Below the pieces are notes generated by a model, which did not search any database, was not told where the DNA came from, and saw only the letters and a list, made by a program, of their open reading frames with translations. 64,000 bases of DNA from Escherichia coli (GTDB lineage Bacteria; Pseudomonadota; Gammaproteobacteria; Enterobacterales; Enterobacteriaceae), in assembly GCF_003018115.1 (NCBI RefSeq), contig NZ_CP027457.1; one strand, 5' to 3'. Shown one piece after another: positions 47,063-48,905 of this stretch (position 1 is its first letter; every line of letters begins with the position of its first letter). The position numbers and the translations under genes were made by a program.

Positions 47063-47163
47063 ATGAAGGGTCAACCAAAAGCCAGCTAAGGATTGTCTCT
47101 TTGATGACCTTACGTCTGGCTTCCAGTGCCTGGGGTGAAACCATACTGATGTGTTGACATCCT

Positions 47164-47183
47164 CCACGCCCTGAAGGACGTGG
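47164..47183. repeat. subterminal imperfect hairpin of the IS (tnpB-proximal end)
   Basis: CCACGCCCTGAAGGACGTGG: 5-bp stem, C/A mismatch, 2-bp stem, TGAA loop; 14 nt beyond the tnpB stop. Confidence 0.6.
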
Positions 47184-47196
47184 ATCCCTGCTACGT

Positions 47197-48405
47197 TCAG
47201 GCTGTCGCCTGAATCATTTCGGTGGGTTCCTGCTTCAACGGGCGGCCTGACTGCACCATCTCTCCACAGGCAAGAACGGCGTGCCCCGCCGCTAAAATGT
47301 TACGAGCGCCATTTACATCAGCGTTCGCTGTATATCCACATGCCTGGCATCTGAATTTACTTTGTGACAGGCGATTTTCTTTCGCTGTATGACCACAGCA
47401 CGCGCAACGCTGGCTTGTGTACGCTGGCGGAACAGCAAGCACCTGACCGCCACGCCAGAGCTGCTTGTACTCAAGCTGGCGGCGCATTTCATACCAGCCC
47501 TGATCCAGTATCGAACGGTTTAAACCTGATTTTGCCCGGACATTGCGCCCCGGCTGGCTGACCGTACCCGCTGCTGACTTTGACATGTTGCTGACCTTCA
47601 AATCCTCAATGACTATCATTGCGTGGTTTTTGCTGACGGTCGTTGTGACTTTGTGAAGGTAGTCCCTGCGGATATTTGCGATACAGGAATGCAGTCGCTG
47701 TATTTTGCGTTTCTGCTTCTGCCAGTTGTTGCTGAATTTGACCTTGCGGCTTAACTGTCGCTGAAGTCTCGCCAGCGTCTTCTGGTTTTTCTGAAAACTG
47801 TTTACAGGCTCAAAGACTGTGCCATCTGACAGCGTGGCGAGTTTAGCCACGCCAGCATCCAGCCCGACCATTGATGCTGAAGGGTGAGCCGGAGTGGATA
47901 CTTCACTTTCTGTCTGAATACTGATGTACCACTTACCGCAGGACTGGCTGACAGTGACATTTTTCACAACACCCGTGACCTGACGGCTATTCCGGTAGCG
48001 CATCCAGCCCAGTTTCGGCAGAAAAATACGGCTGTTTTCCTGATCGAGCTTAACGCCCTGCGGGTAGCGGAATGCATCATTCTGTCCCCGCTTTTTGAAT
48101 CGGGGAAAAGCAGCCCGCTTCCGGAAGAAGTTTTTGTAAGCCCGCTCAAGGTCTTTCAGTGACTGTTGCAATGGCTGTGACGGGGCATCTTTAAGCCATT
48201 GCGTTTCAGTGACATTTTTCCACTCAACCAGCCAGGAAGCCATTTTCCCGTAAGGGATGTATTTATTACCGGCCTCATGATTCTCATTCTGAAGCGCCAG
48301 AGCACGATTGAAAACGAAACGACATGCGCCTGCGAAGCGCCTCATTTCACGCTCCTGTTGACCACCGGGTCTTAACTGGAATTTAAATGCCTGTAGTCGT
48401 TTCAC
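47197..48405 (-). CDS. tnpB: TnpB (IS605 OrfB family, RNA-guided RuvC-like nuclease)
   Basis: 402-aa ORF with GTG start; RuvC-like motifs [20 protein letters not shown] and zinc finger CACCGH...CQACGY. Confidence 0.9.
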
Positions 48406-48412
48406 AGGCCAA

Positions 48413-48844
48413 ATGATACTTTGGTCTGTGAAAAAAGAAACCGATATCCGGCGTGGAAGGCATTGTGTTTTCCTGATGCATGTTCACCTGGTCTTTGTCA
48501 CCAAATACCGACGCCAGATTTTTGACCATGACGCGACAGAAAAACTACGCACTTACTTTTCAAAGGTATGTGCTGATTTTGAAGCTGAACTGGTTGAAAT
48601 GGATGGCGAACCAGATCACGTCCATTTGTTAATTAACTATCCTCCCAAACTGGCGATATCCAGTCTGGTAAACAGCCTCAAAGGCGTATCGGGTAGGTTA
48701 CTGCGACGAGATCGACCAGATATTGCAGTCAGGTATTACTACAAAGGCGTTTTGTGGAGTCCTGGCTATTTTGCCAGTAGCTGCGGAGGTGCGCCAATAT
48801 CCGCCATCCGTCAATACATTGAACAACAGCAAACACCTGGTTAG
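48413..48844 (+). CDS. tnpA: IS200/IS605 TnpA (HuH single-strand Y1 transposase)
   Basis: 143-aa ORF with KYRR, HuH motif HVHLL and catalytic-Tyr region [15 protein letters not shown]; true start may be the internal ATG at 48476. Confidence 0.85.
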
Positions 48845-48865
48845 GTGGAAAACCGCGCCGTATAT

Positions 48866-48885
48866 CCCCGCCCTGAAGGACGGGG
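48866..48885. repeat. subterminal imperfect hairpin of the IS (tnpA-proximal end)
   Basis: CCCCGCCCTGAAGGACGGGG: same core CGCCCTGAAGGACG and same mismatch geometry as the hairpin at 47164-47183. Confidence 0.6.
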
Positions 48886-48905
48886 TTTTACGGCGCACCG
48901 GATAA

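Follow-up and report, generated by a model that had tools for sequence, protein, structure and literature searches.

A complete, probably inherited copy of IS609 in the ytfA pseudogene of Escherichia coli

Within a window of 64,000 nucleotides of Escherichia coli DNA (contig NZ_CP027457.1 of assembly GCF_003018115.1; "the window" denotes this whole stretch) we found an insertion sequence (IS) of the IS200/IS605 family, 1,748 bp in length, at positions 47154-48901. It carries two divergent genes, tnpA and tnpB, whose start codons are separated by only 7 bp, and it lies inside ytfA, a pseudogene of the TetR/AcrR type. A first-pass annotation of the window had recognized here an IS200/IS605 element with divergent tnpA and full-length tnpB, and both the open reading frames (ORFs) and their NCBIfam scores bear this out. 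The extent it had given, 47100-48905, does contain the element, but it runs 54 bp too far on the left, into the 3' fragment of ytfA, and 4 bp too far on the right, across the target tetranucleotide. The same annotation had placed the element between ytfB and yjfZ, which is the correct locus, but the site is not simply intergenic: the insertion interrupts ytfA. The features of the locus are as follows.

47154..48901, minus strand: complete IS609 element; its top (active) strand is the tnpB sense strand, that is, the minus strand of the window
47197..48405, minus strand: tnpB (insQ), RNA-guided RuvC endonuclease family, 402 amino acids, GTG start, uninterrupted
48413..48844, plus strand: tnpA, Y1 HUH (histidine-hydrophobic residue-histidine) single-strand DNA transposase, 143 amino acids, uninterrupted
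48845..48901, minus strand: left end (LE), top strand CCGGTGCGCCGT-AAAA-CCCCGTCC-TTCA-GGGCGGGG-ATAT-ACGGCGCGG, delimited by inverted repeat, direct repeat and end alignment
47154..47196, minus strand: right end (RE), hairpin CCACGTCC-TTCA-GGGCGTGG at 47163-47183, then AGGATGTCAA
48902..48905, minus strand: target and left cleavage tetranucleotide TTAT (ATAA on the plus strand), directly 5' of LE; presumed transposon-associated motif (TAM), which TnpB would require next to its target
47046..47153, minus strand: 3' (C-terminal) fragment of the ytfA pseudogene, severed by the insertion and overlapping the 3' end of ytfB; placed by mapping RefSeq orthologous loci on K-12 ytfA
48902..49195, minus strand: upstream fragment of the ytfA pseudogene, its N-terminus missing as in K-12

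The limits of the element were obtained by searching both junctions against 5,426 complete E. coli genomes. At the left junction, genomes without the insert match the window up to 47150-47153 and IS copies at other loci match it from 47150-47154 on; at the right junction, the empty-site matches restart at 48901 (48901/48902) and the other-locus copies end at 48905-48911. The one-base ambiguity that this leaves was settled by comparing ten IS609 copies from five independent loci (ytfA, ydcO, yedK, yeaQ/DUF1869 and yidH), all of which read, on the top strand and with slashes marking the ends, TTAT/CCGGTGCG...GGATGTCAA/ followed by unrelated flank, the common sequence being confined to these limits. 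The K-12-type empty site, ...CCATACTGATGTG/ATAAACCAGG..., is exactly the two window flanks joined with no base gained or lost (in top-strand form a seamless ...GGTTTAT/CACATCAG...), and there was accordingly no target duplication at the ytfA insertion. Both ends of the window copy are thus complete by comparison with the empty site and with other loci. The statement in the first-pass annotation that K-12 has no IS at this locus also proved right, MG1655 being empty there.

Which element is it? The window copy differs from the curated MG1655 feature "insertion sequence:IS609" (1503161-1504908, also 1,748 bp) by 34 mismatches and no gaps, an identity of 98.05%, and the two have the same ends, including the flanking TTAT and the terminal TCAA. 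In RefSeq the orthologous genes go under "IS200/IS605-like element IS609 family transposase" and "RNA-guided endonuclease InsQ/TnpB family protein", and the name IS609 as we use it rests on this naming together with the curated MG1655 feature. As far as sequence can show, the element has all the features that define the IS200/IS605 family and, more narrowly, IS609. We therefore conclude, with a probability of about 0.9, that window 47154-48901 is a complete copy of IS609, an E. coli IS200/IS605 member of the IS605 type with divergent tnpA and tnpB, which was inserted 3' of TTAT in the ytfA pseudogene without target duplication and is old and inherited. IS609 is already catalogued and the ytfA insertion is already annotated in other genomes, and nothing here departs from known biology.

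Both genes score well above the cut-offs of their NCBIfam models, TnpB against NF040570 (guided_TnpB) with 387.8 bits (cut-off 100) and TnpA against NF033573 (transpos_IS200) with 147.6 bits (cut-off 55), and a PDB sequence search matched TnpA to the structures of the IS608, ISDra2 and Sulfolobus TnpA proteins. The first-pass claim that both ORFs keep their catalytic motifs held up on inspection. In TnpA, the HUH motif is H69-V-H71 and the catalytic tyrosine is Y135; in TnpB, the RuvC triad comprises D183 (GLDAG), E267 (IEDL) and D363 (NADVN), aligned to GVDVG, TEHL and DRDEN of ISDra2, and two CxxC motifs, at 334 and 353, form a zinc ribbon. Both ORFs are free of frameshifts and internal stops, and we rejected the idea that they are frameshifted or degraded, as tnpA and tnpB have the same lengths as the genes that RefSeq annotates as intact. 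Proteins identical to this TnpA are encoded on at least 1,000 public contigs, and proteins identical to this TnpB on 64.

An additional feature of the region between the genes is a palindrome with 14-nucleotide arms, TTTCACAGGCCAAA and TTTGGTCTGTGAAA, at window 48400-48433, which spans both start codons (tnpB GTG at 48405, tnpA ATG at 48413). It is present in ten of ten E. coli copies and would fold as RNA with -19.6 and -15.4 kcal/mol in the two senses; the E. coli copies are too alike for a covariation test, and the palindrome is not clearly common to the Aeromonas relative described below. Its effect might be to block the start of translation in both genes; alternatively, it may serve as an operator. 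A further ORF of 140 amino acids on the minus strand (48698-49120) was considered as a gene and rejected: it has no NCBIfam match and consists of a ytfA fragment running over the junction into the left end and the 3' region of tnpA, and is a chimeric by-product of the insertion.

Each gene is followed by a subterminal hairpin, as the first-pass annotation had noted. The RE hairpin (47163-47183) lies just past the tnpB stop codon, with the TCAA terminus 10 nucleotides 3' of the hairpin foot (AGGATG-TCAA/), and the LE hairpin, just past the tnpA stop codon, is an imperfect palindrome with a core at 48865-48885 and an extended form at 48855-48896. On one and the same strand, the core of one hairpin is directly repeated in the other, and each copy is itself a hairpin; the arrangement is that of the IS200/IS605 family and not that of terminal inverted repeats. 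TTAT precedes CCGGTGCG at all five independent loci as well as in the MG1655 copy, and all copies, together with relatives as distant as Aeromonas, terminate in GGATGTCAA, 10 nucleotides past the hairpin foot. In a survey of IS605-group elements, TTAT was the commonest left-end cleavage motif (PMC9956272). We also considered a second IS609 copy in the window and rejected it: outside the two ends of the 47154-48901 element the hairpin core has a single match, at 7926 with two mismatches, which is at chance level.

The gene that received the insertion had already been damaged. In K-12, ytfA (b4205) is a 402-nucleotide TetR/AcrR pseudogene without an N-terminus, convergent with ytfB and overlapping its 3' end, and it runs continuously across the insertion point. 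Since ytfA is inactivated by the N-terminal truncation too, independently of the IS, the insertion would have had no obvious further cost. Strain A0 34/86 (NZ_CP120567.1) has an intact TetR/AcrR gene of 215 amino acids here, with a 3-ketoacyl-ACP reductase and a sugar phosphate isomerase where the window has yjfZ (the region compared being window 48902-49467), and because of this intact gene and these other neighbors we consider that the locus has been rearranged independently of the IS. Strains K-12 MG1655 and RR1 are empty at the ytfA site, and BL21(DE3) gave a partial match of the empty-site type only.

The first-pass annotation had suggested, from the empty site in K-12, that the insertion would be strain-specific. 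This was wrong: the same left junction is found in 1,743 and the same right junction in 1,744 of the 5,426 complete genomes (~32%), and the carriers include strains of O157:H7, O55:H7 and O111:H8, in the first two of which RefSeq annotates the element. The ytfA insertion is a common polymorphism among strains, not a strain marker. Of the 5,426 genomes, 5,015 contain IS609 somewhere, the median being 2 places per genome; the loci are few and recurrent, and plasmids add another 567 places. The median agrees with a survey in which E. coli genomes had about 2 TnpB elements each (PMC9956272). Within the ten-copy sample, ytfA-site copies differ from the window copy at 12-30 nucleotides and other-locus copies at 23-39, and the flanks of the most divergent ytfA-site copies (labelled L006 and L010) have diverged as well. 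Such differences agree with old insertions passed down with the chromosome, and there is no sign of a recent burst.

Relatives of the element are found beyond the E. coli chromosome. In the Aeromonas relative tnpA and tnpB are divergent, as in the window copy, and on Klebsiella and Xylella plasmids there are standalone tnpB genes with the same RE; such variation is to be expected in the family. Among the tnpB relatives whose RE ends in ...GGATGTCAA, at 83-95% identity, are those of a K. variicola plasmid, a Xylella taiwanensis plasmid and an E. coli IncY phage-like plasmid; no tnpA is annotated adjacent to the K. variicola and Xylella genes, the two in which the upstream region was examined. 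Beside the IncY copy is a phage head-processing gene, and an Icd-like gene lies near the one from K. variicola. All three belong to the IS609 lineage as IS1341-like solo tnpB derivatives that travel on plasmids.

The two genes have fared differently among the ten sampled copies. tnpB is full length in eight and short of its last four codons only in the other two. tnpA is intact in three (the window, O55:H7 and yeaQ-locus copies); three, including that of K-12, have a stop at L96 plus a lost normal stop codon, one has a frameshift, and in three the sole defect is a change of the TAG stop to CAG, the ORF then running out through the left end. Over the same ten copies, a small sample, the mean pairwise ratio of nonsynonymous to synonymous polymorphism (pN/pS) was 0.30 for tnpB and 0.73 for tnpA. 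The change of the tnpA stop (window 48842-48844) from TAG to CAG was observed in six of the ten copies in all, three of which also have the L96 stop; in the CAG copies TnpA reads on through the left-end hairpin into the adjoining flank, and RefSeq flags them as pseudogenes. The window copy, with both genes and both ends in order, is plausibly competent for transposition.

The region over the 3' end of tnpB and the RE also has a conserved structure, which supports the presence there of an ωRNA scaffold, the RNA that would guide TnpB.

47154..47328, minus strand: predicted ωRNA scaffold, overlapping the tnpB 3' end and RE; placed by its conserved structure
47138..47153, minus strand: predicted ωRNA guide CACAUCAGUAUGGUUU, flanking ytfA sequence

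We aligned the tnpB 3' end and RE of the window copy with those of eight homologs. Two of these are further copies on E. coli chromosomes; the remaining six are relatives on plasmids, of which E. coli supplied two and K. variicola, K. pneumoniae, Xylella and Aeromonas one each. The homology of all nine sequences stops exactly at TCAA, beyond which they are unrelated. RNAalifold gave 53 pairs for the nine, 9 of them with compensatory changes, as against a mean of 4.0 compensated pairs in shuffled alignments, of which none of 500 reached 9, and 0-1 when partners were slid; the single-sequence fold at the tnpB 3' end and RE had a z-score of -2.4. Three sub-threshold Rfam matches, HgcC, RAGATH-18 and sot0042, coincide with the predicted ωRNA in both strand and position and serve as hints of location only; HgcC and sot0042 are RNAs associated with tnpB 3' ends. 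TTAT plus the predicted guide is exactly the sequence of the K-12 empty allele, and because of this identity the published TnpB homing and retention model would apply directly.

The flank that would supply the guide (window 47137-47152) varies among lineages that bear the insertion, reading CACATCAG...CACCCCAGG in the window, CATATCAG...CACCTCAGG in L006 and L010 and CATATCAG...CCCCCCAGG in a further copy, L009. Because the flank differs in this way, orthologous copies would carry slightly different guides, each fitting the flank of its own lineage.

Steps known from the IS200/IS605 family suggest how the element might behave. TnpA would bind both subterminal hairpins on the top strand, cleave 3' of the TTAT on the left side and of the TCAA on the right, excise the element as a single-stranded circle and reseal the donor seamlessly, after which the circle could re-insert into single-stranded DNA 3' of a new TTAT. 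In terms of the MG1655 chromosome, the top strand of the element is the plus strand at 4.43 Mb, the lagging-strand template of the clockwise replichore, and this orientation is reportedly the one that the family prefers. The ωRNA would be transcribed from the tnpB 3' end and RE and read into the flank for its guide; TnpB with this RNA would then cut the scarless empty site, at TTAT plus the guide match (CACATCAGTATGGTTT), and recombination with the sister chromosome would restore the element. Taken together, it is conceivable that the window copy is one of a minority of IS609 copies with a working tnpA, and that the ytfA polymorphism stems from one ancient insertion, kept by TnpB-ωRNA cutting of the empty site and lost by occasional excision that escapes it, and is not a recent gain. 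We regard this combined reading as doubtful, on the unlikely side of possible.

Several points weigh against our main reading of the element, with its presumed competence, mechanism and ωRNA. A scan for promoters and terminators gave nothing above shuffled expectation, and no family reached its gathering score in a permissive Rfam search. The covariation set was small, nine sequences of which several are closely related, and lies partly within coding sequence, and the covariation of the RE hairpin could equally reflect the DNA hairpin that TnpA recognizes. The guide length of 16 nucleotides was assumed by analogy with ISDra2, as was the TAM. Finally, mutation-accumulation lines of K-12 yielded no new IS609 insertions (PMC5009759). 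Our search of the literature on IS609, InsQ and TnpB returned no functional study of IS609 TnpB or TnpA and no biochemistry of IS609 TnpB, only surveys and this K-12 result.

Could the window copy then be structurally intact and yet effectively an immobile relic, inherited vertically or moved by homologous recombination, so that to call it transposition-competent is to overstate the case? We put the chances of this at slightly less than even. Such a relic would account for a site occupied in about a third of genomes, for the low copy number and the handful of recurrent loci, for sampled copies that all lie 1-2% apart without a burst, and for a near-neutral tnpA that is broken or without its stop codon in seven of the ten copies, and the empty-handed K-12 lines are cited to the same effect. 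However, the IS609 copy of K-12 is tnpA-null, with a stop at codon 96, and for this reason the absence of insertions in those lines does not bear on the window copy. In the latter tnpA, both hairpins, TTAT and TCAA are all intact, its exact TnpA protein is very common, and the many plasmid places, as well as the relatives on phage-like plasmids, imply that some movement continues.

If the site were instead a hotspot struck repeatedly by IS609, the shared occupancy would reflect independent insertions. Insertion is indeed TTAT-specific, and in our small sample the ytfA-site copies L006 and L010 lie as far from the window copy (28-30 differences) as the yedK copy does (23 differences). Yet the junctions are base-identical, TTAT is far too frequent for one site to be re-used by chance and in the same orientation, and the L006 and L010 flanks have diverged too (e.g., CATATCAG... 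and ...CACCTCAGG), which suggests that element and flank have diverged together; we judge repeated insertion to be quite improbable. That tnpB and its ωRNA have been domesticated by the host, for example for RNA-guided regulation, and no longer serve transposon maintenance is very improbable, for although tnpB is under purifying selection and is retained at or near full length even where tnpA is dead, and standalone relatives exist on plasmids, its RuvC triad and zinc ribbon are intact, unlike those of known nuclease-dead domesticated relatives, its guide is simply the adjacent ytfA flank matching the element's own empty site, and the published homing model already accounts for copies that keep tnpB without a tnpA.

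What, then, is gained? The analysis yields corrected coordinates, shows that the disrupted gene was already a pseudogene, and establishes the insertion as a widely common polymorphism; its significance is limited in that IS609 is catalogued in K-12 and over 1,700 complete genomes besides O157:H7 and O55:H7 already have the ytfA insertion annotated. As the predicted guide matches the natural empty allele of K-12-like strains, the locus could nevertheless be a natural test case for TnpB-mediated retention. If an ancient insertion has truly been kept by TnpB and its ωRNA, natural E. coli populations would offer a ready-made test of the homing and retention model.

The closest points of comparison are other IS609 copies. 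The MG1655 copy, between ydcL and ydcO and consisting of the yncK/tnpA pseudogene and insQ, shares with the window copy its length, its ends and its divergent gene order, but it occupies a different chromosomal site, its tnpA has the L96 stop and no normal stop codon where the window tnpA is intact, and its TnpB differs at 10 residues. The ytfA copies of O55:H7 and O157:H7 (e.g., NC_017656.1 5038517-5040164) are identical to ours in insertion point and orientation, with 99.3-99.4% identity and both genes annotated as intact; that of O55:H7 RM12579 differs at 12 nucleotides, which amount to five TnpB substitutions, one TnpA substitution and one change in the RE hairpin.

Among characterized systems, the TnpB-ωRNA complex of ISDra2 from Deinococcus radiodurans (8bf8, 8exa, 8h1j) resembles what we predict here. 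The window TnpB aligns with it over residues 3-372 with 188 bits (8bf8/8exa), the RuvC D/E/D positions and the zinc ribbon are kept, and the structured RNA region that we predict over the tnpB 3' end and RE, with a guide drawn from the flank, would have its counterpart there. The two proteins nevertheless have low sequence identity, and the presumed TAM here is TTAT, whereas that of ISDra2 is reportedly TTGAT.

IS608 of Helicobacter pylori is the mechanistic paradigm of the IS200/IS605 family. It is cleaved 3' of TTAC, 19 nucleotides 5' of the left palindrome, and at a TCAA 10 nucleotides 3' of the right palindrome, with guide bases AAAG 5' of the hairpin foot that pair with the cleavage site and ATAC after the foot (PMC3201880). 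The cis-acting features of the window element agree closely with this paradigm. Like IS608, it has a Y1 HUH TnpA (72.9 bits to 2a6m), subterminal imperfect palindromes, a TCAA 10 nucleotides 3' of the RE hairpin, insertion 3' of a tetranucleotide without duplication, and, on the 5' side of the LE hairpin foot, four bases placed as a guide would be. Unlike IS608, its genes are divergent and not co-directional, its LE cleavage site lies 16 nucleotides from the core hairpin instead of 19, its target is TTAT, its guide position holds AAAA, and the 3' tetranucleotide is ATAT in place of ATAC. The change of C to T in the target (TTAC to TTAT) thus appears to be mirrored by a change of G to A in the guide (AAAG to AAAA), just as the pairing rule of IS608 would predict.

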